Positions 1,319 to 17,225 are shown, counted from the stretch's first letter. The stretch is 17,225 nucleotides of DNA from Candidatus Bathyarchaeia archaeon (GCA_038883795.1 JAVZLK010000034.1:1-17225); one strand, 5' to 3'. Notes: a model not told the origin generated them from the sequence alone. Numbers and translations: made by a program.

Positions 1319-1330
1319 GAATGGTAATGT

Positions 1331-1657
1331 GTGGGGTTCATCAGCTTGGATTTGAAAGTTAAGCTTCCGAAAGAAAAGGCGTTCTATTTTTTCTCTTCCA
1401 TTGGAAACTATACTGGTGAAAGTGCAGCATCGATAGAGGATTTCCTGAATAAAATTGAGCGTATAGATGTTAAATCCATAGAGTTTCATTTTTATAGAGG
1501 CGATTTCGAGAAATGGTTGGCTGAAACTATAGGCGACAAAGAGTTAGCAGAAAAGATTGGAAAATTGAAAAGCCAAAACCTTACAGGGGAGAGTTTAAGA
1601 TATCAGCTTCATAAAATCGTTTCAAAAAAGTTGGAAGCGTTGCGGCTTGAACGATGA
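1331..1657 (+). CDS. DUF5752 family protein
   Basis: GTG start; AFYF..G.YTG..A.S..DF...I......SIEFH..RGDFEKW.....GD.ELA pattern; ATGA overlap with next gene. Confidence 0.75.
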   Translation: MGFISLDLKVKLPKEKAFYFFSSIGNYTGESAASIEDFLNKIERIDVKSIEFHFYRGDFEKWLAETIGDKELAEKIGKLKSQNLTGESLRYQLHKIVSKKLEALRLER

Positions 1658-3171
1658 CAACTATGAAGGTTTTATTAACTGCTGATAGAACTTTGATGAG
1701 TAATTATCGGAACGACGAGTTCTTGGGCTTTGGAACAACAGCGCCTCCAAACGTTGTTCCAGAATGGTTTTTTCAAATGCTCTTCTTTCCACCTATAAAA
1801 AAAGTTAACGGCATTCCCGTTCAGGCGCCCTATGGACTTAGAAAAATTGAGGCTCAACTGTTAAATGAAGGATTCAAAGTTTTAACAGTTGATCCAGACC
1901 ACCTTAGTAAACATTTGGACGACGCTAAGGCGTTGGGAATCCACGTTATGGATCCCTTCGGTTTAGGTCCTGCATCATCCACATTCTCCCGCATTTTAAA
2001 AACTGGCGAGCCATATGTTGCAAAACACTTCCGTCTTTTGCTTGAAAAACCAGAATTGGCCGAAGCGAAGAAAAGCGGCCTAAAAGTAATCGTGGGCGGA
2101 CCTGGAGCATGGCAGCTTAGGCTTAGACCAAAATTTGTTGACGACCATGGAATCGACTGTGTGATAGACGGAGAAGCCGAAAAGGTTGTAGGCAAAATAT
2201 TTAGGACGGCAGTTGAAGGCGATGAACTTCCAAAATTCTATGAGGTTAGCGCTAAAGAATCGCCAAGCTTGGATGAAATACCTGAGATTAAAAACCCGTC
2301 AATAAATGGTTTAATTGAGATAGGGCGTGGGTGTTGTCGTGGATGCCAATTCTGCAGCGTCACGTTAAGGCCTCTAAGATGGTACCCATATAAAAAGATA
2401 GAAAGAGAACTCTTAGTAAACGTGGATTCTGGAGTAAGATATGCTATACTACACGCTGAAGATGTGTTGCTCTACGGCTCAAAAACCGTGTTGCCGGACA
2501 GAGAAAAAGTGCTGAAACTGCATAAGCTATGCAAAGATTATGTTGAAGAGTTAAGCTGGAGCCACACATCAATGGCTGCGGTTGCAGCTGCCCCAGAACT
2601 TGTGGAGGAAGTTGCAGAACTAATAATAAGTGATAAGCAGGAATGGTGGGGAACTGAAATAGGAATAGAAACAGGCTCACCGGAGCTTGTAAAGAAAGTT
2701 ATGCCTGCCAAGGTTCGCCCGTTCCAGCCTGAGCAGTGGCCCGAGGTTATCAAAACAGCTGCTGGCATAATGACGGATAACAACCTTGTTCCTGCATGTA
2801 CTCTAATAACGGGTTTGCCTCAAGAAACAGAAGACGACGTAGTAAAAACAATAGAGTTAATGGACGACTTAAAAGATTTCAAAAGTCTAATTGTGCCCCT
2901 GTTTTTCGTTCCATTAGGCAAATTGAAAGACAAAAACTGGTTTACAATGGAGCAGATGAGCGACCTGCAAACGGAGTTGCTGATAAAATGTTTAAGGCAT
3001 GACATTTACTGGACAAAAGTGATAATGAAGTCATACTTTAAAGGGAAATGGTACAGTAGAATTCTATCCTTTCTATACTGGCTCTTTGTGAAAATAATTG
3101 AAAGGAAGGCGAAAAGCATCTACAACATTCCATTTAAAACGAAACCCACAAGGATAGAGGCGAAAACATGA
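1654..3171 (+). CDS. grs: Radical SAM protein, GDGT ring synthase (Grs)/GMGT synthase (Gms) family
   Basis: CxxxCxxC (GRGCCRGCQFC); N-terminal motifs LTADRTLMSNY, EFLGF, QAPYGLRKIEA, DPDHL, MDPFGLGP, VGGPGAWQ recalled from Grs-family tetraether-lipid-modifying enzymes; Grs versus Gms not resolved. Confidence 0.72.
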   Translation: MTTMKVLLTADRTLMSNYRNDEFLGFGTTAPPNVVPEWFFQMLFFPPIKKVNGIPVQAPYGLRKIEAQLLNEGFKVLTVDPDHLSKHLDDAKALGIHVMDPFGLGPASSTFSRILKTGEPYVAKHFRLLLEKPELAEAKKSGLKVIVGGPGAWQLRLRPKFVDDHGIDCVIDGEAEKVVGKIFRTAVEGDELPKFYEVSAKESPSLDEIPEIKNPSINGLIEIGRGCCRGCQFCSVTLRPLRWYPYKKIERELLVNVDSGVRYAILHAEDVLLYGSKTVLPDREKVLKLHKLCKDYVEELSWSHTSMAAVAAAPELVEEVAELIISDKQEWWGTEIGIETGSPELVKKVMPAKVRPFQPEQWPEVIKTAAGIMTDNNLVPACTLITGLPQETEDDVVKTIELMDDLKDFKSLIVPLFFVPLGKLKDKNWFTMEQMSDLQTELLIKCLRHDIYWTKVIMKSYFKGKWYSRILSFLYWLFVKIIERKAKSIYNIPFKTKPTRIEAKT

Positions 3172-4538
3172 AAGTATGCCTAATTTCGCCTCCATACAAT
3201 TCAGAGGCCAAATCAGTTGTTGGAGTATCATCGCCCCCATTAGGCTTAGCATATATTGCTTCAATGCTTAGGCAAAACCACGAAGTGAAAATTATAGATT
3301 CAAACATCCTCAACTATTCATTGGAAGATGTTGAAAGGGAAATGCGAAGTTTTAATCCAGACGTTGTTGGAATCACTTCGGTAACGCCCTCCATCTATGG
3401 GGCATACAAGGTCGCGGAAACAGCTAAAAAGGTTAAAGAGAATTGCACCGTAGTTTTAGGTGGACCGCATGCAACTTTCATGCCGAGGCGAACTATGGAA
3501 GAATGCAAATACGTTGACATAATCGTTAGAGGCGAAGGCGAGGAGACAACAAGAGAATTAATCGAAACTATTGAAAAAGGAGCCTCACTAAACGAGGTGA
3601 AGGGAATTACTTTCAGAAAGGAAAATGAAATAATTGACGCTGAACCTAGACCGTTCATAAAGAATGTTGATGATATACCGTTTCCAAGCATAGACTTGCT
3701 GCCCATGCACCTTTACAAATTTAACGGAGTAAAATACACAGCGATGCTGACAAGCAGAGGATGCCCATTCAAATGCTCATTCTGCTCATCCTCAAGGCTT
3801 TTCGGAGGATACTGGAGGGGAAGAAGCCCTGAAAACGTCCTGGAAGAAATTAGAATAGTATATGATGATTACAACATCAGAAACATCGAGTTTGTGGATG
3901 ACACTTTTACGCTTAACCGAGAAAGAGCGGAAAAGATATGCGATGGAATAATCAAGGAAGGCATAGATATAAGCTGGGGAGCATCGTCAAGAGTAGACAC
4001 ACTATCCAAAAAACTTGTTGAAAAAATGAGGAAAGCAGGATGCTGGATTCTGTTTCTTGGAATAGAATCAGGCTCCCAGAAAATACTAGACGCCATCGGG
4101 AAAAGAATCACAATTGAGCAAGCAAAGAAAGCAGTAAAAATTGTGAAAGATGCTGGAATTAAAGTTTTAGGCTCCTTTATAATAGGTTTCCTACAAGACA
4201 CCACAGAAACAATTAAGGAGACAATAAAATTCGCTAAAAGCCTAAATCTAGACTACGCAGAATTCTCAATACTTACGCCATATCCAGGGACTCCAATATT
4301 TGATTACTCCAAAAAGAACAACATGCTTCTCACAGAAAACTGGTCCAGATACACAGCTGCCGAGCCAATCGTCAAAATCGAAGGGGTATCTGAAAAAGAA
4401 GTCAAGGCCCTGTTCCAAAAAGCATACATCACATTTTATCTTAGACCAAAAATTGTTATAGGATGGCTCAAAAACAAACAGTTCAGCTTCATGAAAAGCG
4501 GAATTAAAGCCGTGATAAACTATTTAGAAGGAAGATAA
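3168..4538 (+). CDS. Cobalamin-binding radical SAM protein (class B methyltransferase/BchE-like)
   Basis: N-terminal B12-binding domain (PPLGLAYIAS, DVVGITS, GGPHAT, GEGE); SRGCPFKCSFC; GIESGS and TPYPGT motifs. Confidence 0.9.
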   Translation: MKVCLISPPYNSEAKSVVGVSSPPLGLAYIASMLRQNHEVKIIDSNILNYSLEDVEREMRSFNPDVVGITSVTPSIYGAYKVAETAKKVKENCTVVLGGPHATFMPRRTMEECKYVDIIVRGEGEETTRELIETIEKGASLNEVKGITFRKENEIIDAEPRPFIKNVDDIPFPSIDLLPMHLYKFNGVKYTAMLTSRGCPFKCSFCSSSRLFGGYWRGRSPENVLEEIRIVYDDYNIRNIEFVDDTFTLNRERAEKICDGIIKEGIDISWGASSRVDTLSKKLVEKMRKAGCWILFLGIESGSQKILDAIGKRITIEQAKKAVKIVKDAGIKVLGSFIIGFLQDTTETIKETIKFAKSLNLDYAEFSILTPYPGTPIFDYSKKNNMLLTENWSRYTAAEPIVKIEGVSEKEVKALFQKAYITFYLRPKIVIGWLKNKQFSFMKSGIKAVINYLEGR

Positions 4539-4539
4539 A

Positions 4540-6009
4540 ATGCATGAGGCAGATTTGGTTGCAAACACCGTTAAGACATGGCTAGGCAACCCCATATCGA
4601 GAAGTCTATTAAGGTGGGTTTCAAAAAGAACGGAGAAAGGCAGCAAACTGGAGTCCGCCCTAAAGAAATACGTGGGTGAACAGGAAAAATTAAGCTTACA
4701 AGAAAAACTAGCCTACGCGATAGTTAAGCTAGCCCTCAATAAAGGTTCAGAATCCTTCGGCGTTTCAAAGGAGCAACTGGTAGAATCTTTAAGAAACCCC
4801 ATGGTAAGGCGAGGCATCGCAAACGTCCTTGAGGGCATAGGCCACTACGGCGTGCAAAGACCCCAAACAACAGCCGCACCATTTCTCATAGTGTGGAACT
4901 TCACAAAACAATGCAATTTAAGATGTAAACACTGCTATGAAAACGCTGGACCGAAACCCGCTCCTGACGAACTAACAACAGAAGAAGCAAAAAAAGCCAT
5001 AGACGATTTTGCAAGCGCTGGAGTAGTCGCCCTCTCATTCTCAGGTGGAGAACCATTGGCAAGAAAAGACTTCCTTGAAGTAGCCAAGTATGCCGCTGAT
5101 AGGGAATTTTATGTTTCCGTAGCATCCAATGGAACATTAATCACAAAAGCGACTGCACAGAAAATGAAGAAGGCTGGCGTCCAATATGTTGAAATTTCTT
5201 TAGACGGATTTGAAGAAACTCATGACGAATTTAGGGGGATACCTGGCGCTTGGAAACGAGCTGTAGAAGGTATAAAAAACTGTGTTGAAGCTGGTTTAGA
5301 CACGGGCATTGCAACAACAGCAACACATTACAATCTGAAAGAAATACCGAAACTTGTAGAATTCATCGAGAATGACCTTCACGCAAAAAGGTTCATAGTC
5401 TTCAACTTCATACCCGTAAATAGAGGAAAAGAAATAGTGAATCAGGATATAACTCCAAAAGAGAGAGAAGAACTCTTGGATTTTCTTTACTCAAAACTCA
5501 TAGACAACAACAGAAAATTAGACACATTTTCCACAGCTCCCCAATATGCTGTTACCTCATACAAGTTTGCCTTTGGTCCAGTAGTGGCAACACACTTCAC
5601 AAATAGAGCTGCCTCAGAAATGCTTAAGGGAAGAACTAAATCACTAACCGAGTTCATCGGCGGATGCGGCGCTGGCCGCCTCTACTGCGGCATGGAACCA
5701 AATGGAGACATTGAACCATGCGTCTTCATACCCATAAAAGTTGGAAACATTCGAGAGCAAAGCCTAGTCAAAATCTGGAGAGAATCAACGGTCCTAAAAC
5801 AGATAAGGAACAGAGACGTTTTCAAGGGCTGCGGAGAATGCGAATACAAGTTCATATGCGGAGGGTGCAGAGCGAGAGCCTATGCCTACTTCAACGACTT
5901 ACAAGGTCCAGACCCAGGCTGCAGCATCAACCAAAAATACTGGGAAAAAGTGGCGCAGTCAAAACATCAATATAGGCTTCTAAAAGAATTGGAAAGGGAA
6001 AATTTATGA
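4540..6009 (+). CDS. Radical SAM/SPASM domain protein (NirJ/AhbD-like) with ~110 aa N-terminal extension
   Basis: WNFTKQCNLRCKHCY, SGGEPL, ISLDG; SPASM cysteines CGAGRLYC, PC, CGECEYKFICGGCRARAY, DPGC. Confidence 0.9.
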   Translation: MHEADLVANTVKTWLGNPISRSLLRWVSKRTEKGSKLESALKKYVGEQEKLSLQEKLAYAIVKLALNKGSESFGVSKEQLVESLRNPMVRRGIANVLEGIGHYGVQRPQTTAAPFLIVWNFTKQCNLRCKHCYENAGPKPAPDELTTEEAKKAIDDFASAGVVALSFSGGEPLARKDFLEVAKYAADREFYVSVASNGTLITKATAQKMKKAGVQYVEISLDGFEETHDEFRGIPGAWKRAVEGIKNCVEAGLDTGIATTATHYNLKEIPKLVEFIENDLHAKRFIVFNFIPVNRGKEIVNQDITPKEREELLDFLYSKLIDNNRKLDTFSTAPQYAVTSYKFAFGPVVATHFTNRAASEMLKGRTKSLTEFIGGCGAGRLYCGMEPNGDIEPCVFIPIKVGNIREQSLVKIWRESTVLKQIRNRDVFKGCGECEYKFICGGCRARAYAYFNDLQGPDPGCSINQKYWEKVAQSKHQYRLLKELERENL

Positions 6010-6785
6010 AAATTTTCGTTACGATGGGACGCGGGGGGACGGGAAAAACAAGTTTCGTTGCCTTGATGGCTAAATACTTCATCGAAAATGGAGAAACCCC
6101 GCTTCTTTTGGTGGATTCCGACCCTGACCAAAATCTTGGGGAAATGGTCGGTGTAGACTTGCATGAGTATAGGAAAAAGACAATTTCAGAGCTGCTCGTC
6201 GAAACTTTCTTAGAACAGGGCGGAACCTTGGTCGGTGTTCCGCCAAGCGAACGCATAGAAAGTCGCATATGGGCTCATGGAATGTACGAGGGTGAACACT
6301 TCGATTTTATTGCTGTTGGAACAAAATGGATTGAGGGATGCTATTGTCTACCAGACGCAGCTTTAAAGGGCGCTCTAGAATCATTAACGAAAAATTACAG
6401 ATATGTCCTAGTTGACTCACCAGCTGGCTTGGAGCATCTTAACCGGCGAATAACATCAAAAGTTGACGACATCTTCGACGTAATAGATCCATCAAAAAAG
6501 TCCTTCGATCACATTGAACGCGCTTATCGCGTGGCCAAAGAGGTTAAGATAGACTTTAGAAACCTCTATGTTATTGGAGGCTTCAGGTTTCCAGAAAGCC
6601 TAGAAAGCCAGGCTGAAAAGGTTTTACCATTCAAATTTTTGGGAAGGATCGCCTATGACGAAAACGTCGAAGAATACGTCCTAGCTGGGAAATCCCTTTT
6701 AACTTTGCCATCAAATACTCCAGCATACCTTTCTGTCGAGGGAATATTGGAAAAGGCAGGATATGGCAAGGCAGTTAATTTATAA
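6006..6785 (+). CDS. cooC: CooC/AcsF-type MinD-family ATPase (metal-insertion/maturation factor)
   Basis: Deviant Walker A GRGGTGKT, VDSDPDQNL, metal-binding GCYC, DSPAGLEHLNRR. Confidence 0.8.
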   Translation: MKIFVTMGRGGTGKTSFVALMAKYFIENGETPLLLVDSDPDQNLGEMVGVDLHEYRKKTISELLVETFLEQGGTLVGVPPSERIESRIWAHGMYEGEHFDFIAVGTKWIEGCYCLPDAALKGALESLTKNYRYVLVDSPAGLEHLNRRITSKVDDIFDVIDPSKKSFDHIERAYRVAKEVKIDFRNLYVIGGFRFPESLESQAEKVLPFKFLGRIAYDENVEEYVLAGKSLLTLPSNTPAYLSVEGILEKAGYGKAVNL

Positions 6786-6812
6786 CGTGTACCTATATTC
6801 AATAGAGAAAAC

Positions 6813-6818
6813 GGAGGT
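6813..6818 (+). promoter_or_regulatory. Shine-Dalgarno site of DGC-domain gene
   Basis: GGAGGT just upstream of ATGATG at 6822/6825. Confidence 0.6.
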
Positions 6819-6821
6819 AAG

Positions 6822-7265
6822 ATGATGAGCATACCCAAAATAGGGCTTGTTGCATGCAACAGTGGCGCTTCAAATACTGGATATTTAACAGGGTTAGCCG
6901 CACTGGAAGTAGTTAAAAAATTTGGAAGCGAAGTCGGAATATGCTCATTACCCGCATTAGCTAACAACATTTCAAGACAAATCGTGCTCGTTAAGAAAAT
7001 TAAACATCTAATCGTTATTGACGGCTGCCGTAATGAATGTTCAAGAAAAATACTGAACACTTTAGGAATCAAATATGAAAAATACTTAAATCTGGAATAT
7101 GATCTCCAAATCACCAAACTGGGACCATTCACCACTTTGAACTGTTCCGGAGAGGACGTCGAAAAAGTTTCATCAGCTATAATAGAAAAGATAAAAGAGA
7201 TTGATAGCATTTCATTATCCAACTTTGTTAGGCCTAGCTGCACTCACGAAAGTGCAAGAACATAA
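6822..7265 (+). CDS. DGC domain putative zinc-binding protein
   Basis: ACNSGASNTG, GIC and IDGCRNECS motifs typical of the DGC family. Confidence 0.85.
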   Translation: MMSIPKIGLVACNSGASNTGYLTGLAALEVVKKFGSEVGICSLPALANNISRQIVLVKKIKHLIVIDGCRNECSRKILNTLGIKYEKYLNLEYDLQITKLGPFTTLNCSGEDVEKVSSAIIEKIKEIDSISLSNFVRPSCTHESART

Positions 7266-7339
7266 AATCCATAACTACATTAATCACAATACTGAACCCA
7301 AAAGTATACGTCGTAACTAACTTAGGCGTTCTCAACTTA

Positions 7340-7367
7340 ATTTCTATTAGTGTCTCTTAACAGAATA
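7340..7367 (-). repeat. 28-bp 11-6-11 quasi-palindromic site A (Xer/dif-like site or operator)
   Basis: Reverse complement reads TATTCTGTTAA-GAGACA-CTAATAGAAAT; matches sites B and C in opposite orientation. Confidence 0.8.
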
Positions 7368-7481
7368 AATAACTATTCAATTTTGGATTTGAGTTAAATC
7401 TAAGTTAATTATAGAGGATTTTTCCGTAATTTTTTAGTTTAAGAGTTTTGTATTTATATTTGAATAAAGGAGGGGTAGGTT

Positions 7482-9437
7482 GTGAGGAGGATTGTTTTTG
7501 GAACAGCGTTAACGCTGATGGTTTTAGTTGGTATGGTAATGACTATTGATATTAACTTAGTCATGGGTGAGTGGACAGGAACGGTCTATATTAGGTATGA
7601 CGGAAGCGTTTATCCAGAAGACGCGCCGATTAGCACATCTGATAACATTACATATAGTTTAACCGATGACATATATGGTGGGATCGTGATTGAAAGGAAC
7701 AACATAATTGTTGATGGGTCCAGGTTTACAGTTTATGCCGAAGTTGTGGGCCTGGAAATCTATCAAAGGTCTAATGTGACGATTAAAAATTTCAACATTG
7801 TGAACGGTTATGACCCTGAGGCTGGACAGTTTCCAGAATGGCAGTTTGGTATACGCGTCTATGGATCATCACACATCAAGATTGTTGGAAATAATGCGAC
7901 GAAAAACCTGTTTTTCATATGGCTTGAAGATTCGCACCACAATGAGATAGTGGGAAATAGCGTATTCAAAAATTATGAAGCTATACGCCTCAACTATAGC
8001 TCATATAACGTTATTAGTCATAACAACATCTCCTATAACGAATGGGGCCTTATTCTTGACTGGCACAACACAAACAATAACATCACAGAAAACATAATCG
8101 GTAATAATTCCCGAACCGGGATAGAGCTTTACACCTCCTCAAATAACTTGATTTTGGAAAACCAAATAGTCTGGAACAATGATGGTGTCTGGATTGACTC
8201 ATCTAACAACAACAGAATACTTGAAAATAACATTGTAAATAATTCAGTGGGCATAACATTTAGTGATTCTTCTAGCAACACAATTTACCACAACAACTTC
8301 ATAAATAATTCACAACAAGTATTTGACTTCCACTGGACTTCACCATGGATCCCACCTTCAATAAACATGTGGAATAATACGTATCCGTCGGGCGGAAACT
8401 ATTGGAGCAACTACACAGGCGTTGATAATCTTAGCGGCCCAAACCAAGATCAACCAGGAAGCGATGGGATAGGGGATACCCCGCATACTATAGATGACAA
8501 TAATATAGACTATTACCCACTTATGAATCCTTGGGGCTTCCCGCCGCCTCCGCCTATTGTTGATGATGTCCCACCTGTGACCTCTCTGGTAATTGGAGAG
8601 CCCAAATTCGTTGTCGACGGAATGATATACTTGACTTCAGCTACTCCTATCCAGTTGATTGCTGAGGACAACCCAGGCGGTTCAGGCGTAGCCCTAACAG
8701 CCTACAGAATTTATAACAATACATATGATAGTGGATGGCTAATTTACAAGAGGCCTTTTTACTTGACAGAACTATCAGATGGTGCTTATAACATAGACTT
8801 TAACAGCACTGACAACGTCGGAAATGCGGAGCAAGCAAAAACCGCTACAATTATCCTTGACGATACTCCACCATCAACAGACATCATTGTCGGCGAGCCT
8901 AAATTCGTGGCCAACGTGATATATGTCACTCCGGAAACCCCGTTCGCGCTCTATGCAGATGACGACGCTGGATCAGGAGTCTATTCAACAGCCTACAGAA
9001 TCTACAACAGCACATACAATACTGGATGGACATTGTATTCCAGTCCTTTCTGCCTGACCGCATTATCCGACGGAGCCTACATCATTGAATACTACAGCAC
9101 AGACAAACTTGGAAACACCGAACCCACCAATTCAATTCAAATAACGTGGTTCTCATGGAATTACATATTCACCGACACCCAAGGCAGAGGGACGACCCTT
9201 AAAATTAACCTCGCTCACAAACTCTTCCAATTCATAACACCAGACAAGGATTACAGCATAAGACAAGCCTTCGCGATGCTCAAACTCGGAAGAGTATATA
9301 TGGTAGCACACTATGATGGCCAACTAGCGCTATCCGCCGTATTCATGAACACCAACATAGACTTCTGCATAACCACAGCATGGGATCTGCAGACAGGTAA
9401 ACATTACATATTACTAGACAAAATGGGAAAAGAGTAA
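7482..9437 (+). CDS. Secreted NosD/CASH parallel beta-helix protein with two Ig-like (OmpL47-type) repeats
   Basis: GTG start with GGAGG at 7469-7473; hydrophobic signal peptide; Asn-rich beta-helix repeats; GGNYWSNY.G.D...DGIGDTP..ID..N.D.YPLMNP NosD cap; poly-Pro linker; two D.PP.T...STD..GN.E repeats. Confidence 0.88.
   Translation: MRRIVFGTALTLMVLVGMVMTIDINLVMGEWTGTVYIRYDGSVYPEDAPISTSDNITYSLTDDIYGGIVIERNNIIVDGSRFTVYAEVVGLEIYQRSNVTIKNFNIVNGYDPEAGQFPEWQFGIRVYGSSHIKIVGNNATKNLFFIWLEDSHHNEIVGNSVFKNYEAIRLNYSSYNVISHNNISYNEWGLILDWHNTNNNITENIIGNNSRTGIELYTSSNNLILENQIVWNNDGVWIDSSNNNRILENNIVNNSVGITFSDSSSNTIYHNNFINNSQQVFDFHWTSPWIPPSINMWNNTYPSGGNYWSNYTGVDNLSGPNQDQPGSDGIGDTPHTIDDNNIDYYPLMNPWGFPPPPPIVDDVPPVTSLVIGEPKFVVDGMIYLTSATPIQLIAEDNPGGSGVALTAYRIYNNTYDSGWLIYKRPFYLTELSDGAYNIDFNSTDNVGNAEQAKTATIILDDTPPSTDIIVGEPKFVANVIYVTPETPFALYADDDAGSGVYSTAYRIYNSTYNTGWTLYSSPFCLTALSDGAYIIEYYSTDKLGNTEPTNSIQITWFSWNYIFTDTQGRGTTLKINLAHKLFQFITPDKDYSIRQAFAMLKLGRVYMVAHYDGQLALSAVFMNTNIDFCITTAWDLQTGKHYILLDKMGKE
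8562..9149 (+). repeat. Intragenic tandem duplication of a ~98 aa Ig-like domain (8562-8858 and 8859-~9149)
   Basis: Shared blocks DD.PP.T, GEPKFV, GSGV..TAYRIYN.TY..GW, PF.LT.LSDGAY.I, STD..GN.E. Confidence 0.85.
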
Positions 9438-9520
9438 AAATACTTCGCTTTCACTCCCCACATTTTTCTACAAAATGAAAATCGTAAAAATTTAATCATC
9501 TCTATGTTAAGGAAACGTTG

Positions 9521-9548
9521 TGTTCTGTTAATCATCGCTAACAGAAAG
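9521..9548 (+). repeat. 28-bp 11-6-11 quasi-palindromic site B (Xer/dif-like site or operator)
   Basis: TGTTCTGTTAA-TCATCG-CTAACAGAAAG; perfect 8-bp inverted arms TTCTGTTA/TAACAGAA; lies between two convergent gene 3' ends. Confidence 0.8.
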
Positions 9549-9603
9549 TTTAAATATAAAGAGATGTTACCTGATCGTTACTCGTTGCTTTCACTTTTTA
9601 ATC

Positions 9604-10479
9604 TCACTTATCCATATAAAACCAAATTTTGTTTCCAGTTAAGAAATCTTCCCTCTCTTTTTTAGTTGTTTTCTTAATCGTAAATTCGCAGTAATCGTCG
9701 CCGCTGGGAATAGCTTTGGTGTGTACAAGCTTATAGTTCGGATTGTACGCTATGTATTTTGCTACATCCACATAACAGTATAATCGGCCTAACTTTTCTT
9801 CCCCATATTCTTTCCATAGTTTTGCAAGTACACAATCATAAGCTCTGATTCGCGATTCGCCATCAACATTGACTATTTCAATTTTAGAGTGCATGCCAAA
9901 TTTTGGTACTCTAAGCGATTCCCCTGCGTCAAAGTTTTCAGGCGTTAAGCTTAAACCCTTTGCTTTCACCTCCTCACGAGTTCTTTCCCCTATTCGAATA
10001 CCATAATCCTTTATAGCCTTAGCTATAATTTCAAGCCCTTTTTCTTCTCCAAGTTTTTCTATAATGGTTTTGGCATATGAAAGATGTAGAAGAGCTATTC
10101 TTCTGCTTGTTATTTCTATTTCCTTTTTTGCTTCGCTTAGGGGGATTGTTTCGTCCCTTTTAGGCACTGTGTATACAAGATCCCTAATTACCTGAAATTT
10201 GGATGGAGGTTCAATGGTTACGTCTCCCTGCACAATGGTCTGACAAGCAAGAGAAGCTTTGCCGTTAATCATTAGAGTGCATCGTCCGCATACTCCGCGC
10301 CTACACGCCGTGTGGCTATAATAGGCTAAAGTGCTGTCCACATTCTTATAAATGTAGTCTAAGACATCCATTAAACTCATTCCATCTTCCAATGGAACCT
10401 TGTAAATTGTGTAATATGGTTTATCATCAACATCTGGATTAAACCTCAATATTTTAACCTCAAAATTTTTTTCTTTCAT
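9604..10479 (-). CDS. Fusion of SdhB/FrdB-type 2Fe-2S domain and L-2-amino-thiazoline-4-carboxylate (ATC) hydrolase-like domain
   Basis: N-term ILRFNP...Y.VP...MSLMDVL, CRRGVCGRC, ING..SLAC, IRDL; C-term YG.RIGE, YDCVLAKLW, LYCYVD, GDDYCEF; no 4Fe-4S/3Fe-4S domain. Confidence 0.8.
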   Translation of the reverse strand: MKEKNFEVKILRFNPDVDDKPYYTIYKVPLEDGMSLMDVLDYIYKNVDSTLAYYSHTACRRGVCGRCTLMINGKASLACQTIVQGDVTIEPPSKFQVIRDLVYTVPKRDETIPLSEAKKEIEITSRRIALLHLSYAKTIIEKLGEEKGLEIIAKAIKDYGIRIGERTREEVKAKGLSLTPENFDAGESLRVPKFGMHSKIEIVNVDGESRIRAYDCVLAKLWKEYGEEKLGRLYCYVDVAKYIAYNPNYKLVHTKAIPSGDDYCEFTIKKTTKKEREDFLTGNKIWFYMDK

Positions 10480-10489
10480 TTTAATTCGC

Positions 10490-12271
10490 CTACTTGCATT
10501 TTTCTATGGCATTTAAAATCGCATCCTCAAAGCTCATTATTCCTTTAGGGGGCTCAATTTTTGTTGTTGTAATTGGATAAAATTTTGTCTGTATATTTTC
10601 GCCTCTTTTTTCAATCACAATCTCTTTTAACCAGTTGTTATTGTTGACGTTAGGATGGTCTATACGGTAATGAACCCCGCGGCTTTCCTTACGCATGAGC
10701 GCGGATTTGGCTGAAATTTCCAACACTTGCAGAATATTTTCTAGCTCCAAAGCTTCAATCCACTCTTTGTTATATTTTTGAACTTTTGCAGTGACGCGTA
10801 TTTTTGGCAGTTCATTTTGCCTTATTTTTTGAAGTTGCTCAAGGGCCTCTTTCAGACTTTTTCTGTCTCTAACGACTCCAATGCTCTGTTGTGCAATATG
10901 CTGAATCTTCCTTTTAACCTCTATGGGTTTGACTCCAATTTTTCTATTTAAAGGAGCGAAATTTTTCTCTTTAAATTTCTTAACCTGCCTTAAATTAACA
11001 TCGATGCTTTGCACCTTCTTTACGTATTCTGCGGCGTATTTGCCCGCTATTGCACCTTGTACAAGTATTTCGGTAGTAGCGGCAACAACTCGATTGGCGC
11101 CAAATAAGCCACCGCCGCATTCTCCGGCTGCGTAAAGCCCACTCAAATTTGTTTCGCACTTTTCATTTATTTTTATGCCGCCTTCAAAGTAGTGTGCTGC
11201 CGGCCCCACCTCTACGAGTTCTCCATTGAGCATTTTTTCAATTAGATTAACGTAGTGTGTTCCTTGAAATTTCCAATTAGGCATGAGTTCAAAGGCTTCG
11301 CTTTTTTCCAGTTCGTTCTTTGTTAAATCTTTGAGAGAAAAGTATACACCACCATGAGGAGATCCTTTTCTCTGCCTTATTTCAAAAGTTGAAAATAAAG
11401 AAAGTAACAATTTATTCCATTCAGTTTTCGTTGCCAATTCGACTATACTTGGATTGTATTTCTCTAAAAACTTCTCTCCTATACCATTAAGAAGAGTCCC
11501 ACAAAACATTCCAAGCACATAAAGAAAGATGCTCCCTCGATAAATCTGTGGCCATATAATTACATTAGGGCAAAAGGTGACCATCTCCATATTTACAAGC
11601 TCTGCTCCAGCTCTGTATGCCATTGCCTGTCCGTCGCCTGAAAGTCCTTCAGATCCTGTATTAAATAAGTAAGCTGTGTGCCAGCCACCAGTAGCTAAAA
11701 CAACCGCTTTGGACTTTAATACAATAAAATCGCCAGTGGTTATATCTACTCCAACAGCACCAATAACTCTGTCCTTTTTTGTTAAAAGGTCCGTAATCAT
11801 AACATCTTCAATTATTTCAACATCATGTTTTCGTACTTCTCTCGATAAAACTCTCATTATTTCAATTCCAGTAGTATTAATCTCTCTTTTTCCGCTAGAA
11901 TAAACTTTAAGACCCCAGTCAAGAAGCTCTTTTACTCTATTCGGTGCATCGGAAACGTAAACTTCTACTAGCCTTTGGTTATTTAGATAGAAGCCTTGTA
12001 CAATTATATCTCTAAAGAATTTATCCTTGCTGTCTTCGGGGTCGCCATCAAATCCCAACTCATGTAAACTTTTTCCGTCAAGTGTTATATCGGCACCTGC
12101 CATTATTGTAACCCCTGATTTAGCAATTTTTCCCTTGCTGACAATTGTAACATCCACACAATGTTCTGCTGCTTCTATTGCCGCCCTAGAACCTGCCCCT
12201 TCGCTTCCAATAACTAAAACATCGGTGTCAATAACTCTGTCAGCCACATTATTAATATTTGACATAATCAT
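10490..12271 (-). CDS. FAD-dependent oxidoreductase, SdhA/FrdA/NadB flavoprotein family (non-canonical active site)
   Basis: DVLVIGSEGAG, AVVLATGG, SGDG.AMAYRAGA, HYFEGGI, GLYAAGE, GANR, R.ESRG.HYR.DHP. Confidence 0.88.
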   Translation of the reverse strand: MIMSNINNVADRVIDTDVLVIGSEGAGSRAAIEAAEHCVDVTIVSKGKIAKSGVTIMAGADITLDGKSLHELGFDGDPEDSKDKFFRDIIVQGFYLNNQRLVEVYVSDAPNRVKELLDWGLKVYSSGKREINTTGIEIMRVLSREVRKHDVEIIEDVMITDLLTKKDRVIGAVGVDITTGDFIVLKSKAVVLATGGWHTAYLFNTGSEGLSGDGQAMAYRAGAELVNMEMVTFCPNVIIWPQIYRGSIFLYVLGMFCGTLLNGIGEKFLEKYNPSIVELATKTEWNKLLLSLFSTFEIRQRKGSPHGGVYFSLKDLTKNELEKSEAFELMPNWKFQGTHYVNLIEKMLNGELVEVGPAAHYFEGGIKINEKCETNLSGLYAAGECGGGLFGANRVVAATTEILVQGAIAGKYAAEYVKKVQSIDVNLRQVKKFKEKNFAPLNRKIGVKPIEVKRKIQHIAQQSIGVVRDRKSLKEALEQLQKIRQNELPKIRVTAKVQKYNKEWIEALELENILQVLEISAKSALMRKESRGVHYRIDHPNVNNNNWLKEIVIEKRGENIQTKFYPITTTKIEPPKGIMSFEDAILNAIEKCK

Positions 12272-12304
12272 GACCTTACTCGATTTTAGTAAATTTGTAG
12301 ACTT

Positions 12305-13069
12305 TTAAAATTTTTGTTTTTCATTTATTTCTGGAAGTTGATACCATTGTCTTTTTTCACCGATGATTGCTCTAGTTTTCCACGCAAGAGATTTAGGTTC
12401 TTTTTCGATGATTTCAAGCAGGAAACTACATTTATCCTTCAGATTTACCTTAATTTGGGCATTTTTTTGATCGAGGCATTTCTCAAGATAACGCAACACT
12501 CTATTAACATTCATTGTAAAGGTTTTGTAGATTCCCCAATTGTCAGAGCAAAGCTTGGCTATATATTTAGCGTTGATTTTTTCCCGGTCATTATCAGTAT
12601 CCGAAAGCTCATGGTCGTTTAGCAGAAATATAATATCCTTTAAGTCTTTTTCATCTAACTGGACTATTTGCAGCTTTGTTATTAATAAGTCTGATACTGA
12701 AAGTGTTGGAAAGTCAAGTTTTAACCTTTTTCTAAAGTCAAACTGGTGGCACATCGAAAATTTGTCTAGAAAGATATCAACTCTTATTTCACCTTTGTTA
12801 TATATAAGTCTCTCTGATCCATGAAATGCGTTAAAATTTTCGTCAGGCGTATATTCAAGGTTCTCAAAAATTTTCTCAATCTTGTTTTTTTCTTTTGAAT
12901 ATCCAACGAAATCGATATCGGTGAGAGCTCGCGGTATCACCTGTCTTTTAGCAGTTTCAGAATGTAACCTGATTGCTATTGAACCAAGTAATCTTAAAGT
13001 TACGTTGCTTTCTTCAGCCGAATTCAAGATTTTATATACTTCAGATAAGAAACTTTCGTCGCCCACCAT
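12305..13069 (-). CDS. Nucleotidyltransferase-fold protein (uncharacterised)
   Basis: LLGSIAIRLH...RALTDIDF (hG[GS]...DxD) and third acidic residue in RVDIF; C-terminal LLITKLQ...KDLKD. Confidence 0.65.
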   Translation of the reverse strand: MVGDESFLSEVYKILNSAEESNVTLRLLGSIAIRLHSETAKRQVIPRALTDIDFVGYSKEKNKIEKIFENLEYTPDENFNAFHGSERLIYNKGEIRVDIFLDKFSMCHQFDFRKRLKLDFPTLSVSDLLITKLQIVQLDEKDLKDIIFLLNDHELSDTDNDREKINAKYIAKLCSDNWGIYKTFTMNVNRVLRYLEKCLDQKNAQIKVNLKDKCSFLLEIIEKEPKSLAWKTRAIIGEKRQWYQLPEINEKQKF

Positions 13070-13072
13070 GAA

Positions 13073-14032
13073 TTATCCCTCAACCCGGTAGTATCTAATT
13101 ATTTTTTCTTTATCAACGTCTATTATGTATCCTCGAAGTATGCCTTCACTGTATTCGCTTCCAGGATTAAGGCAAAGGGTTCTTCCAATGTAGATGTCTC
13201 CTGGAGACTCATGTATGTGACCAAAAAGTCCGAGTTTGGGCTGGTGCTTTTCTATAGCCTGACGTACAGCCGTGCTTCCTACTGGAACCTTAAGTATTTC
13301 TCCTCCTATGATAACTGGTTGGAGTTCCTCGTTTAATTTTGGCGCCAAGTCTAATCCAGAGTTAAAAGGTGGGCAATGAAAATTGAAAATACAGTTGTTA
13401 ATATTTTTCACTTTTGACACCATATTCTCGATTTTTTGACTCAGTTCGTCTTCTGGGAACTCGCCATGTGTCCGCCAAGGGGTTATGTTTGTTGCACCCA
13501 TACTGATCATTTCATGGAAATCGTCTAACATTACAACATCGTATTCAGGATAAATTATGATGCTTGAACGTTTTAGGACATCGATGATTTTTGGGTCATC
13601 ATCATTCCCCGGAATCATAAAAAATTTGACCTTTCTGTCTTTTAAGCGCTCTTCAGCTAATCGGACCCACTCTTCCATTCTTTTGGTTATGAGACTGGAA
13701 AATATGTTTAAAAATTTTTCCTTGTCCTTTTTAAGCTCTTCAAATTCATTGGTGTCAGTTATATATGGGTAATATCCGCAATCAGAAATCTGCTTAACTA
13801 CTTCTTGAAGCCTGTTTTCTGAACTGATTGAAATATCTGAACCCAAAAATCTTGTTTTAAAGACGCTGTCAGTTTTTTTAATGATTGGGACAATTACTTT
13901 CCCTGTAAGATCACCGCTTACGATAACAACCGACGCGTGATAAATATCATACTTAACTACATTTAGAATTTTTCTAAAGCAGATTTCTGATCCGTGTATA
14001 TCGCAACAGTAATAGATTCTGGTATGCACCAA
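13073..14032 (-). CDS. Calcineurin-like metallophosphoesterase (Icc-related)
   Basis: TTG start; motifs DIHG, GDLT, GNDD, HCPP, GHIHE, LNPGS. Confidence 0.88.
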   Translation of the reverse strand: MVHTRIYYCCDIHGSEICFRKILNVVKYDIYHASVVIVSGDLTGKVIVPIIKKTDSVFKTRFLGSDISISSENRLQEVVKQISDCGYYPYITDTNEFEELKKDKEKFLNIFSSLITKRMEEWVRLAEERLKDRKVKFFMIPGNDDDPKIIDVLKRSSIIIYPEYDVVMLDDFHEMISMGATNITPWRTHGEFPEDELSQKIENMVSKVKNINNCIFNFHCPPFNSGLDLAPKLNEELQPVIIGGEILKVPVGSTAVRQAIEKHQPKLGLFGHIHESPGDIYIGRTLCLNPGSEYSEGILRGYIIDVDKEKIIRYYRVEG

Positions 14033-14079
14033 TGTTGGAATTCCCTTCCAATAGAGAAAAAAGGTAAGGTATAAAAGGC

Positions 14080-15687
14080 TTATTCTGGAGGAATCAATTT
14101 GAACATTTTATCAAATTCTATGCCTTTCTTTATGTTCCATGCGCGAACGGAGTAGTATATGATTATCCCAGCTATTACTACGACCAGTGTGGCAATTAGT
14201 CCTGTTGTTACTGCCCATGACCAAAGAGACATTTCAGGGGTTATGGGAGCAGATCCATATACGCCAGCTATAAGATACACTGGGAGTATCCATGCCAGCT
14301 GAAGTACTCCTAATGGAATGAAGACCTTTTTCCATGGCACTGATCTATAAAGATCTGGGCGTCTCTTTTTCATGACTATCGGAATTATCCCCGGGAATAT
14401 TAATGAAGTTGACATTAAAAGTGTTGTCCATAGGGCGTATGAAACAGGGTTTACCCCTGCAATAGTTGTCGCAAAGAATATTATCCCAATTAAGCCTTCT
14501 AATATGAAGATTTTCATTGGTTGGTGTAGTCTAGGATGAACATCCGCGAGGGTTTTTGGAATCATTCTATCTATTCCCCAAGCGAAGATTTGCCTGTTAA
14601 TGTAAACCATGCTTGCCGGTATGCAAAGCCAAGTACCAAAAACTCCAGCTATACCCGCGATAAACCATAATGGCCATAGATTGGGGGTTCCAATGGTACA
14701 TATTAGTGCGTTGATAGGAGGTAAACCGAATGGAGCAGCGTCAGTATTCCAGAACAAGTAGCTCCAAGCTATGATGTTTTTGTACCCAAAGCCAGTTAAT
14801 ATAAGCCAAACAAAAGGTATTTGGTACAGCATAAAGAAAGTTAAAGACCCAATTATTGAAATTGTTAAGCCTTTTTTCACATCACCTTTTATTTCACCAC
14901 TTATCGTCGCTGAATATTGATAACCGCCTATTACAAAAAGTACGTATCCCAATAGCCCTATCAGAGAATTAAATGTTAGAGTTTCATTTGGATTCCAGCC
15001 ATTCTCAATGGCCTTGCTTACCAACGCAGTTGTTGAATAGCCTACGTATTGCTGAAAATTTGTTTCAAACGCAGATGCCCCTGCGATCACTCCTATAATT
15101 GTCAAAATCAAGCCTATAATGCTAAACACTGCAAGTACTGACAAAATTGTATAATATTTTCTTGGAGGCAACATGCATAGAATCATTGCAAAGACAATTG
15201 TAAAGATGCCTAAAACCCACACAAGTGGCGACTGAGTAATATAGCCAAATGGGCCTTGCAAAATGCCCACAATTGCCAACACGTCGAACAATTGCTTCAG
15301 ATTTCTAACAGTTACCCACGCCATCCATCCCCAAACTGGAATCCATGACCAGACTATCATCCATGAGTTTATAAAACCCCAAAATGGGCCTAGTATCCTC
15401 GCAGGTATAACATAATCGGCACCACTCCGCGGCATAGGTGTCGTAAATTGAATATAAAGTATCGCTGTTATATAGCTCAATAGTCCGATCAATAGACAAA
15501 CAAGCAAAAACGGCGGCCACCCAAGAATAAGACCGGCAGGAAAAAGTCCAAGATAGGCAACAGACCACGCAAATTTACTGCCCATTATATTCGCGATATT
15601 GAAAAATGCTGCTTTAGTAGCACTTGCTTCCTTGATCAATCCAGAAGCTTTTCTTGCAAACAATTTTTCCTCTTTTTCTTGAGCCAT
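14080..15687 (-). CDS. APC-family amino acid/amine permease
   Basis: About 12 hydrophobic segments; F.RKASGL..E N-terminus, MPRSGADY, GEIK, R.IFAWG.DR.IP, C-terminal IPPE; GGTGA SD upstream. Confidence 0.88.
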   Translation of the reverse strand: MAQEKEEKLFARKASGLIKEASATKAAFFNIANIMGSKFAWSVAYLGLFPAGLILGWPPFLLVCLLIGLLSYITAILYIQFTTPMPRSGADYVIPARILGPFWGFINSWMIVWSWIPVWGWMAWVTVRNLKQLFDVLAIVGILQGPFGYITQSPLVWVLGIFTIVFAMILCMLPPRKYYTILSVLAVFSIIGLILTIIGVIAGASAFETNFQQYVGYSTTALVSKAIENGWNPNETLTFNSLIGLLGYVLFVIGGYQYSATISGEIKGDVKKGLTISIIGSLTFFMLYQIPFVWLILTGFGYKNIIAWSYLFWNTDAAPFGLPPINALICTIGTPNLWPLWFIAGIAGVFGTWLCIPASMVYINRQIFAWGIDRMIPKTLADVHPRLHQPMKIFILEGLIGIIFFATTIAGVNPVSYALWTTLLMSTSLIFPGIIPIVMKKRRPDLYRSVPWKKVFIPLGVLQLAWILPVYLIAGVYGSAPITPEMSLWSWAVTTGLIATLVVVIAGIIIYYSVRAWNIKKGIEFDKMFKLIPPE

Positions 15688-15723
15688 ATATTTTATTCAC
15701 CGGATTTTGAGTTACTATCATAA

Positions 15724-15739
15724 CTTTAAAAAACTTTCT
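15724..15739 (-). promoter_or_regulatory. BRE/TATA promoter of the minus-strand operon
   Basis: Minus strand AGAAAG-TTTTTTAAAG, ~37 nt upstream of the permease ATG, leaving a short leader that contains GGTGA. Confidence 0.6.
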
Positions 15740-15852
15740 ATCTAAGACGATCTCCTATATCTACGTGTCAAGAAAACAAGCTTTACATATGGAATAAATG
15801 TAAATGCCAATTCATATTAAAATTGCACATTGAACCTAACAACGCTGGTTAT

Positions 15853-15880
15853 GTTTCTATTAATCGACGCTAACGGAAAT
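15853..15880 (+). repeat. 28-bp 11-6-11 quasi-palindromic site C (Xer/dif-like site or operator)
   Basis: GTTTCTATTAA-TCGACG-CTAACGGAAAT; same orientation as site B, spacer matches B at 4 of 6 positions. Confidence 0.8.
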
Positions 15881-15923
15881 TATTATAGGCAATTACTGTT
15901 AATGTTTTTATAGTTATTTTTGG

Positions 15924-15937
15924 GCAAAATTTTTAAG
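15924..15937 (+). promoter_or_regulatory. BRE/TATA promoter, probably leaderless transcript
   Basis: GCAAAA-TTTTTAAG ending ~24 nt before the ATG at 15961; no SD. Confidence 0.55.
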
Positions 15938-15960
15938 GTTTAAAATGCATTTTTTGAAGC

Positions 15961-16536
15961 ATGAGCACGCCTGAGCCTTTTGTTTTATATGTTGGTGAGA
16001 GGTTTGTTGATAAGGCTTCTAAAACTTTTGGTTTAGGCCTTATTGTTAGGAAACCCCTTGTGGATATTTTAAAGAAGATGGATGTAAAGTTTAAAGAGCT
16101 TGACAGGGATGAGGCCAAAGCGGCCCTTGAAAGACTCGGCGAGTCAAAAGGCATAACTGTGTCTACTGCCCAGCTTATTAAAGGCTTGGCGCTTGCATTT
16201 TTTCTTCCAACAGGCATTTTCCTAGCCACATTGAAGAAAGTTTTCTATAGGTCGGGAGCTGAAACCGAAGACAGCATAATACTCGAGTTCCTTGCAGAAA
16301 TACCGAGGGCCTTCAGGCCAACCATATTCTACGACATCTGGCTCGTCGTGCCAAAAACAGAAAAAGGAGAAGCAAACACAAAACAAATAATCAAAACAAT
16401 AGTGGAAAAGACTGGGGTTCCACCACTAACAGAAGAAGAATGGGAAAACGCAAAACCCATAATTGAAAAACTGAAAGGAAAACTGGAAGTAAAGGGCGTA
16501 GCAGAAAACCTATGGACGTTAATACTAACTACTTAA
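15961..16536 (+). CDS. Hypothetical protein
   Basis: 191 aa ORF with promoter at leaderless spacing and protein-like composition; one short hydrophobic stretch (GLALAFFLPTGIFLA); no family recognised. Confidence 0.75.
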   Translation: MSTPEPFVLYVGERFVDKASKTFGLGLIVRKPLVDILKKMDVKFKELDRDEAKAALERLGESKGITVSTAQLIKGLALAFFLPTGIFLATLKKVFYRSGAETEDSIILEFLAEIPRAFRPTIFYDIWLVVPKTEKGEANTKQIIKTIVEKTGVPPLTEEEWENAKPIIEKLKGKLEVKGVAENLWTLILTT

Positions 16537-16550
16537 GTGGGTGGCAAAGG

Positions 16551-17225
16551 ATGCGCTGTAAGTTTGTTAGATTTACGGCGATTTTGACCTTTCTGAGCTT
16601 CATTTTTCTTCCGCTGTGTAAGGCTTCTTTATCTCCGAGGGGTCCAATCCGCATAAGTAGTAATATGGACTTTACCGCTGTTAACGGGGTGACTGGTGGT
16701 TCTGGAACGGCTATCGACCCGTATGTCATTGAGGTTGGGCTATAACCGAAGACTATGGCGTTGATTATGGAATTTGGCTTGAAAATACAGATGCCTATGT
16801 CGTTATTAGGAACTGCTTGATAGTTTCACCATACACCGATATTAGGCTTGAACATGTGGCAAACGTTTTAATTGAAAATGTTACAAGTGAATGGAGGTCA
16901 TCAAGGCTTATACGTGTACGACTCAGCAGATATTGTCATTTCCAACAGCCATATTGACCATATAGTCGGCGACGTTGTTCTGCTCTATTCATCAACCAAC
17001 ATTAAAGTGGAGAATTGCATAATCGGAGAAGGCCAATACTATAGCCTCTACATGCAACACGTAAACAACACCACCATCAAAGATTGCGAGATCTACGGTA
17101 GCCTTTACGGCGTCTACGCTGAATCGTCATCGAGCATTTCCATAAACAACTGCAACATCCACGACAACTCTGGGGACGGCGTGCACTTTTACGTTACCAT
17201 TGACAGCGCAATCCTAAACTGCCTA
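16551..17225 (+). pseudogene. Secreted right-handed beta-helix (NosD-like) protein gene with two frameshifts, truncated by the window edge
   Basis: Signal peptide and GSGT..DPYVIE motif; shifts frame at ~16733 into GWAITEDYGVDYGIWLENTDAYVVIRNC; returns to the original frame at ~16886 (VNGGHQGLYVYDS...INNCNIHDNSGDGV), open to the end. Confidence 0.75.

Follow-up and report, generated by a model that had tools for sequence, protein, structure and literature searches.

Our goal was to understand why an archaeal contig carries the same short motif, with inverted arms, in three separate intergenic spacers. The contig, here called the window, is a 17,225 nucleotide (nt) stretch of DNA from a Candidatus Bathyarchaeia archaeon. 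It is contig C34 of a metagenome-assembled genome (MAG), hereafter the source genome, which has 81 contigs, spans 2.18 Mb, is 87% complete and has a G+C content of 40.6%. Descriptions of the sequencing runs indicate a hot spring setting. According to the original prediction, made from the window alone, the three copies (sites A, B and C; Table 1) are dif-like sites, as used by Xer recombinases, and separate unrelated gene modules. Comparison with related genomes and metagenome contigs indicates that the sites are probably crossover points for site-specific exchange of gene cassettes. Furthermore, they are members of a larger family, whose central sequences form discrete classes that follow one another in a set order along contigs.

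Sites A, B and C belong to a family of 24 bp sites

The core pattern that defined the three sites matches the window exactly three times, even with two mismatches allowed, compared with 0.01 matches expected by chance. None of 200 shuffled windows had three or more matches, and a relaxed arm pattern detected no copy in the whole window beyond A, B and C. The sites are where the original prediction placed them, each in an intergenic spacer. Across the source genome, the same pattern with up to two mismatches gave 33 forward and 30 reverse matches; a reversed-pattern control gave 0. The chance expectation, the shuffles and this control rule out a chance origin. Allowing up to one mismatch per arm gave 60 matches. 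By gene context, 17 of these are between divergent genes, 18 between tandem genes and 9 between convergent genes; 10 are in open reading frames (ORFs) and 6 have a contig end on one side. We kept 51 as family sites. The nine matches excluded from later counts, on contigs C1 (three), C3, C7, C17, C18, C23 and C42, all have unfamiliar centres, and seven are inside ORFs (eight have two mismatches; that on C7 has one).

Strict sites also occur in 10 of 41 relatives (controls, 0), and the centre classes described below recur in further genera within the family as well as in a second family within the order. At least 120 metagenome contigs carry sites matching the pattern with centre GAGACA. Note that we took 80 metagenome loci from these contigs, chosen by that pattern alone. 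A viral contig collection, searched with the GAGACA and CAGCGA patterns, gave 0 matches, which speaks only for that collection; a viral origin of the sites was then set aside.

Pooling the source genome, relatives and metagenome contigs yields 211 unique sites, in which the conserved part is 24 bp long (9-6-9 or 8-8-8). The consensus reads TTCYRTTA, R, five variable bases, A, Y, TAAYRGAA. The conserved arms, positions 1–8 and 17–24, are in inverted orientation around a variable, asymmetric centre, which is the layout of a core site for a simple tyrosine recombinase of the lox/FRT/dif type. The 11-6-11 architecture originally proposed did not survive this alignment, since the outermost two bases of each 11 bp arm are near background composition. 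The proposed asymmetry of the inner bases fared better: it is real across the 211 sites, where position 9 is A (59%) or G (39%) and position 16 is C (83%) or T (17%). That position 15 never varies (A in 211/211) is in part a product of how the sites were oriented, namely by class, given that all five class cores, described below, end in A.

Inverted arms might also indicate that the sites act as folded single strands or RNA hairpins, be it as attC-like sites, as repetitive extragenic palindromic (REP) elements with a Y1 transposase, or as terminators. Each site could form an 8 bp stem with an 8-base loop, and sites are intergenic. However, variable arm positions do not covary in the 211 sites (complementarity 0.630 versus 0.608 expected, and 0.521 versus 0.525 expected). 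To judge from the alignment, then, recognition is of duplex DNA, one half-site at a time, rather than of a hairpin. Unlike systems of REP elements and Y1 transposases (RAYT), the source genome (87% complete) has no match to Y1_Tnp (PF01797), and a search of the window with Rfam matched no family. In the available part of an account of archaeal integrons (PMC9668308), the hallmark of an attC site is a conserved fold of the single strand, most cassettes in an integron share one orientation, and IntI is used. By those criteria, our 24 bp sites lack the attC fold and the genes between them are not co-oriented. Action as a hairpin is highly improbable.

Sites cluster on short contigs and near contig ends, which supports the original proposal of recombination sites. 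In the source genome, 45/51 are on contigs shorter than 35 kb, which hold 41% of bases, and 20/51 are within 1 kb of a contig end (3.8 expected). For metagenome sites, 28/69 are within 300 nt of a contig end compared with approximately 12.5 expected, a count that leaves out 11 of the 80 loci as pieces of longer contigs. The source genome has 45 relaxed-motif sites, versus at most 11 in any relative, and is 0.5–1 Mb larger than its four congeners. The MAG bin may pool variable regions from several strains.

Centre classes stand in a fixed order

The centres form five discrete classes: ACGTTA, GAGACA, CGATGA, CAGCGA and CTGCAA. Distinct from these are ‘pal’ sites, in which the arms are complete palindromes and the centre is, for example, CACCTC, CATTTA, CAAACA or CGTGAA. 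Within a class, flanking sequences are unrelated, so that a larger repeat, or a miniature inverted-repeat transposable element, is ruled out; the CACCTC and CATTTA ‘pal’ classes are exceptions. Contigs present the classes in a single order and with fixed relative orientation: pal, ACGTTA(+), GAGACA(-), CGATGA(-), CAGCGA(-), CTGCAA(-). Thus, the last four are co-oriented and ACGTTA alone is inverted.

In the source genome, from which the order was derived, 20/21 neighbouring pairs fit; 10,000 shuffles of the labels gave a mean of 6.2 and a maximum of 13. The order also describes 18/19 neighbouring pairs in loci of relatives and 63/68 in the 80 metagenome loci. Although the latter were chosen only for GAGACA, 66 of their 78 non-selected sites fall in the four other classes, compared with 3.7% expected by chance. 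One nearly closed genome (G012, 98% complete) contains four arrays of sites.

The window follows the same series: GAGACA(-) at site A, CGATGA(-) at site B, and then the orphan centre of site C. The 8-base centre of site B recurs in the source genome at C25:14697 and C33:352. Sites B and C were correctly described as direct repeats; on the + strand, their centres differ at two of eight bases. Sites A and B had been called inverted, using a criterion that is ambiguous. Aligned to its class, CGATGA, site B points the same way as A, as in nearly all arrays elsewhere, and inversion between A and B is not supported.

A separate observation concerns the sole exception to the order in the source genome. 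At C25:7132-19600, a CGATGA-GAGACA unit occurs twice in tandem.

Homology stops at sites, apparently between the arms

If sites are exchange points, DNA that is shared between loci should end at them. The clearest case involves L112:83-877 and L121:5757-6551. Their 99.75% identity begins with the opening base of a CAGCGA site and ends with the closing base of a CGATGA site; the outer flanks are unrelated on both sides. Similarly, L123:69-1171 and L151:1151-2270 share a CGATGA-to-GAGACA unit (98.2% identity) between unrelated flanks. Homology stops at the edge of a site in four further pairs, two arrays of one genome among them, and homology blocks between contigs of the source genome also stop at sites.

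Pairs of loci with one flank in common locate the breakpoint more finely. In five, the arm near the common flank is identical and the far arm is different, and this includes the rare arm variants TTCAATTA and TTCGGTTA. A sixth pair (site C and the corresponding site of congener G003) also conforms, apart from a single change in the near arm. Because arm variants stay with the adjacent flank, the exchange point is, on this comparison, between the arms.

Intervals between sites hold diverse and rarely shared cargo

We extracted 97 intervals (93 unique), each delimited by neighbours that follow the order, with lengths from 282 to 12,249 nt and a median of 1,928 nt. A single gene is found in 43, and the largest has 14 genes. 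Genes may be on either strand (26 + and 30 - in the slot from GAGACA to CGATGA), and sites are faced by 97 gene starts and 87 gene ends (87/184 being 3' ends), at widely varying distances. We scanned 130 of the 163 cassette ORFs with Pfam, some short ORFs of the first 150 and the last 13 being omitted, and matched 142 families among these 130 proteins. The commonest are NosD/beta-helix proteins (8), SAM methyltransferases (7), PKD (4) and CARDB (4).

Cargo DNA is hardly ever common to two intervals. Where it is, position in the series matters: in eight of nine slot pairs, with at least 200 nt aligned at 87% identity or above, both members are of the same slot type. The ninth pair aligns over 230 nt (90.8% identity) and the two intervals have a CAGCGA end in common. 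Neighbouring sites are of the same class in 5/97 intervals.

Synteny of the window breaks at sites A and C

Comparison with two congeners supports the prediction that synteny would break at the sites. In G002, a DGC gene 88% identical to that left of site A is followed by a GAGACA site, and then by different cassettes, split by CGATGA, CGATGA and CAGCGA sites; synteny thus ends at site A. Conversely, G003 is 96% identical to window positions 15851–17151 and unrelated left of 15851, a break that falls inside site C. The right arm of site C is common to both, whereas the centre and left arm differ. Neither the NosD cassette, between A and B, nor the five-gene cassette, between B and C, has a close match in 25 relatives. 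Taken with the presence of the same cassette in unrelated contexts, and with arms that follow flanks, the breaks at A and C support the proposal that recombination sites bound unrelated modules. A comparison of contig C6 of the source genome with G012, around an integrated element, gave synteny on one side only.

The public data compared here are assembled contigs and not reads, and one run, the likely source of the window, does not count as independent of it. Contigs of that run have a depth of 42–45 in the left flank, 25.5 across A to C, and at least 67 on the right. In one contig of the source sample, a different left flank is joined at 7341. From another study, a 2220 nt contig covers 7410–9541, with its first 62 letters unplaced, and so spans roughly site A to site B. 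In run X3, the A-B cassette is approximately 98–99% identical and the B-C cassette approximately 90–92% identical; in run X5, the B-C cassette is mostly without cover. Note that uncovered parts of the window in runs X2, X3 and X5 do not show absence of the sequence. Contigs of other samples have the A-B cassette without B-C, or have the two at different divergence.

Contigs with a 7365>9523 joint skip the NosD cassette, placing a GAGACA-type site directly beside a CGATGA-type site, with a match of 24 letters on one side. This joint could be an empty slot.

Candidate enzymes and the ‘pal’ sites

The source genome has 26 matches to the tyrosine recombinase family PF00589, of which 22 are above the cut-off, mostly on short contigs, and two serine recombinases, both on the same contig. 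One candidate is a 304 amino acid XerA-like integrase, present in two copies beside ‘pal’ sites (Table 1). In close relatives, a ‘pal’ site is 111–124 nt before the start of this gene in 6/6 cases with visible upstream DNA. The only sequence match among solved structures is entry 4a8e, a ‘probable tyrosine recombinase XerC-like’ protein (E-value 2.1e-9), which we take to be Pyrococcus abyssi XerA. A more distant clade of integrases has no palindrome of the site family upstream; in at least L071 and L072, a sequence resembling a tRNA 3' end precedes the gene. Another candidate is a zinc-ribbon integrase, encoded for example at C45:9184-10644.

Several observations concern the surroundings of these genes. 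The truncated integrase copy on contig C8, which retains the N-terminal 188 residues, looks as if it has been cut by a cassette boundary. In L067, an inverted repeat of approximately 130 nt (2010–2137 and 9751–9879) ends in two ‘pal’ sites with different centres, and flanks a 7.6 kb segment beside the integrase. This may be a part of the element that can invert, or a structure at its termini. A conserved gene of approximately 240 codons (C79:113-871, C54:136-849 and C20:425-1147), whose product has a TFIIB-type zinc ribbon, stops 52 nt short of each CATTTA ‘pal’ site. Since all three contigs begin just upstream, this gene belongs to a repeated element.

Could the sites be dif-like sites used by the housekeeping XerA of the host, much as pdif sites in Acinetobacter are used by XerC/XerD? 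The inverted arms, 6 bp centre and TAA-type inner ends are broadly like pdif, for which the available text of PMC13141974 gives ATTTCGTATAA-CGTGTA-TTATGTTAATT. The source genome also has a full-length XerA-like gene (C21:888-1769), and G012 has arrays though the 304 amino acid integrase was not found there. However, the C21 gene product scores 173.7 bits, below the family cut-off of 220. Moreover, the conserved part of the sites is 24 bp rather than 28 bp, and their orientation does not alternate as pdif modules require. In the portions of PMC2958812 and PMC8371274 to hand, dif is a single 11-6-11 site per chromosome. Like our sites, the archaeal dif site used by XerA has an inverted repeat and a 6 bp centre but, unlike dif as those portions present it, our sites number dozens per genome and are missing from many relatives. 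The relaxed motif was not found in 20/41 relatives, some of them scored 98–100% complete, and all would be expected to have dif. Because of this absence, the genome comparison argues against the sites being the conserved chromosomal dif of this order, and the dif label of the original prediction is not supported. Use by host XerA is distinctly unlikely.

A different explanation is that the sites are operators, or other palindromes bound by a regulator of a mobile element (an RHH-like or integrase-like protein), and that mosaic arrays arise by homologous or microhomology recombination at linkers. Indeed, at module boundaries of lambdoid phages, short conserved sequences have been proposed as recombination linkers. 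The ‘pal’ sites fit such a role. They are 165, 177, 176, 177, 191 and 187 nt from the start of a conserved RHH-like gene (the RHH-like protein is found in 7/41 relatives), and also 111–124 nt from the integrase gene. Upstream of the latter, a conserved inverted repeat, TTTTTCAAAAAGCCTTGAAAAA, is approximately 25 nt from the ‘pal’ site (L060, L061, L063, L067, L079 and L080), and a half-site, TTCCATTAA, is approximately 30 nt before the start codon. The arrangement of ‘pal’ site, repeat and half-site suggests that the integrase may regulate its own expression. In addition, arrays adjoin a mobile element: in G012, and on contig C80 of the source genome, the DNA beyond the ‘pal’ sites encodes its core (AEP primase, D5-like helicase and a zinc-ribbon integrase).

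The cassette-bounding classes behave differently. Their distance to gene starts has an interquartile range of 56–210 nt, and they have no fixed distance or orientation with respect to genes, facing ends almost as often as starts (87 and 97, as above). Nine sites in the source genome are between convergent genes, as the original prediction had said of site B, correctly. It had also held that a fixed distance to promoters of conserved genes would point to a regulon; this applies to the ‘pal’ subclass, which is near a conserved gene, and not to the classes that bound cassettes. Furthermore, a dimer that reads the arms would leave few exact centres, a fixed order across genera and unrelated flanks unexplained, and breakpoints are between the two arms. 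Homologous exchange also seems ill served by 24 bp, which is short for that process. We consider operators or linkers unlikely as an explanation for the family as a whole.

Site-specific cassette exchange remains the interpretation that we favour, and several points weigh against it. All of the evidence is comparative, from MAGs and contigs, the bin may pool strains, and no recombination event was seen directly. The sole joint resembling an excision product, 7365>9523 (runs X1 and X5), has 24 letters on one side, too few to be reliable, and is not counted as such. The order was derived from the source genome and then tested there, so only the relatives and the metagenome provide independent tests, and there are exceptions in each set (1/21 in the source genome, 1/19 in relatives and 5/68 in the metagenome). 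A seventh pair with a common flank, site A and its counterpart in G002, lacks the pattern in which arms follow flanks. The operator-like ‘pal’ sites, 165–191 nt from the start of the conserved RHH-like gene and beside a promoter-like repeat, belong here too. The enzyme raises further difficulties. No candidate recombinase co-occurs cleanly with sites among the 41 relatives (strict sites in 10), as would also be expected of operators. The family of the 304 amino acid integrase is in only 7/41, and is not found in G012 despite its four arrays; the zinc-ribbon integrase family is in 34/41 genomes, with or without sites. Finally, the position of catalytic Arg I is occupied by Ser in 16/16 members of the 304 amino acid family (GLS[ILV]SD, compared with GLR in XerA), in an alignment of the C25 and C58 copies with relatives L060–L074, which excludes the out-of-frame L067 and L076. 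The Ser is a feature of the whole family, the more distant clade included.

A proposed model for exchange of addressed cassettes

We propose that A, B and C are core sites at which a site-specific recombinase acts, a tyrosine recombinase being the likeliest kind. The two inverted arms of 8–9 bp (TTCYRTTAR) would bind protein, and the asymmetric 6 bp centre would be the overlap region for strand exchange. Sites of the same class could then recombine, and sites with different centre classes should not. Since the classes stand in a fixed order, each interval would be an addressed slot, holding a cassette of 1–14 genes. A crossover at sites of the same class, in two arrays or replicons, would fuse them into a cointegrate. 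The cointegrate would then be resolved by another crossover, at sites of the adjacent class, so that only the slot in between is swapped. In this way, a fixed series of classes would guard the array against internal deletion, yet leave any slot replaceable. If a circle recombined with an array just once, the outcome would be an added cassette between two sites of the same class. This would explain neighbours of the same class (5/97 intervals), and also the tandem unit on C25, since integration of a circle at one site would give such an arrangement.

The sites, their classes and order, the breaks in homology, the arms that follow flanks and the mosaic distribution across samples are all observed, whereas the enzyme, the chemistry of strand exchange and the notion that exchange is still ongoing are the parts of this scheme that we infer. 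In its fullest form, Bathyarchaeia and their integrated elements would carry an addressable rack, with one recombinase and at least five mutually exclusive classes in one order across genera, in which each slot could be reloaded independently by double crossover with any other array. We put this forward tentatively, as somewhat short of an even chance.

Gene content of the window

Coordinates are collected in Table 1. The left flank is either chromosomal context or the content of a slot left of site A. The NosD/beta-helix protein of the A-B cassette is probably a surface protein. Genes of the B-C cassette encode a Fer2_3/ATC_hydrolase protein, a fumarate-reductase-like flavoprotein, a hypothetical protein, a metallophosphoesterase and an amino-acid permease. 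An apparent fourth spacer, at 16537–16871, is not intergenic; it is the frameshifted start of a second NosD-like gene, in the right flank. This gene has a signal-peptide-like N-terminus near 16545 and a stop at approximately 16744, after which it continues in another frame. Contigs of the source run have, at full depth, an extra C following position 16735, which makes an assembly error the probable cause of the frameshift.

Table 1. Positions of sites, cassettes, flanking genes and integrase genes
Feature	Contig	Position	Strand	Description
Left flank operon	C34 (window)	27–7265	+	DUF169, Fe-S protein, DUF5752, 3 radical SAM enzymes, ParA-like ATPase, DGC-domain protein (Pfam)
Site A	C34 (window)	7342–7365	-	Class GAGACA; minus-strand reading TTCTGTTA-AGAGACAC-TAATAGAA; spacer 7265–7482
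A-B cassette (slot GAGACA to CGATGA)	C34 (window)	7366–9522	+	One gene, 7482–9437: NosD/beta-helix protein with Ig-like domains (Pfam)
Site B	C34 (window)	9523–9546	-	Class CGATGA, subtype GCGATGAT; between two 3' ends, 9437 and 9604
B-C cassette	C34 (window)	9547–15854	-	Five genes, 9604–15687 (ORFs, Pfam)
Site C	C34 (window)	15855–15878	-	Orphan centre CGTCGA (minus strand); between two 5' ends, 15687 and 15961
Right flank	C34 (window)	15879–17225	+	Hypothetical gene 15961–16536; NosD-like gene from ~16545, with 1-base frameshift in this assembly
304 amino acid XerA-like integrase	C25	19702–20616		~100 nt from CACCTC ‘pal’ site
304 amino acid XerA-like integrase	C58	6555–7481		~100 nt from CACCTC ‘pal’ site
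Truncated copy of the integrase	C8	994–1560		N-terminal 188 residues; then O-methyltransferase-like gene and GAGACA site

Discussion

The closest known system is, from these comparisons, the dif module, of which the arrays described here would be an archaeal variant with ordered classes. In the part of PMC13141974 available, Acinetobacter dif modules recombine and are replaced at pdif sites with identical or near-identical spacers. Replacement of a single module is proposed there to proceed by cointegrate formation at one matched pair of sites and resolution at the next; modules alternate in orientation (C and D modules). As in that account, our short sites have inverted arms and a 6 bp centre, and bound unrelated modules, with the same module in different contexts. 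The differences are also clear. The Acinetobacter modules that the account covers are on Rep_3 plasmids, whereas ours are archaeal and in chromosomal or integrated-element arrays. The conserved part of our sites is 24 bp, orientation does not alternate, and a small fixed set of centres keeps one order across genera and samples. Unlike sites for XerC/XerD, both arms are alike, which suggests that one recombinase, and not two, would act on them.

Integrons offer a second comparison. Like them, our arrays place small cassettes of diverse cargo between recombination sites, and a tyrosine recombinase gene heads some arrays. Unlike integrons, as far as the part of PMC9668308 at hand describes them, the sites here are 24 bp long with no arm covariation, genes are on either strand, cassettes have up to 14 genes, and sites are ordered by class.

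Heterospecific lox and FRT variants have been engineered with identical arms and centres that do not cross-react, so that cassettes are exchanged only between the same pair of sites. The logic of identical arms and different centres is similar here, and the restriction of high-identity cargo to the same slot fits it. Those variants are man-made, from single natural sites, whereas our series of at least five classes is apparently natural.

In the literature that we searched, there is no description of such archaeal arrays; in the available text of a 2021 review of archaeal tyrosine recombinases (PMC8371274), the terms ‘cassette’ and ‘Bathyarchaeota’ occur 0 times. If our interpretation is correct, integrons and dif modules would be joined by a third type of gene-cassette system, which would also be the first resembling dif modules in Archaea. 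Its distinctive property would be a conserved, ordered series of classes, with each slot separately exchangeable. It would also be a natural counterpart of engineered exchange with multiple lox sites, and would supply several orthogonal sites of thermophilic origin. For genome engineering, a single thermophilic recombinase and a set of short sites that do not cross-react would be useful. For uncultured hot-spring Bathyarchaeia, exchange at such sites would explain why genomes assemble poorly around site regions, and would account for the turnover of surface proteins, methyltransferases and small metabolic operons.

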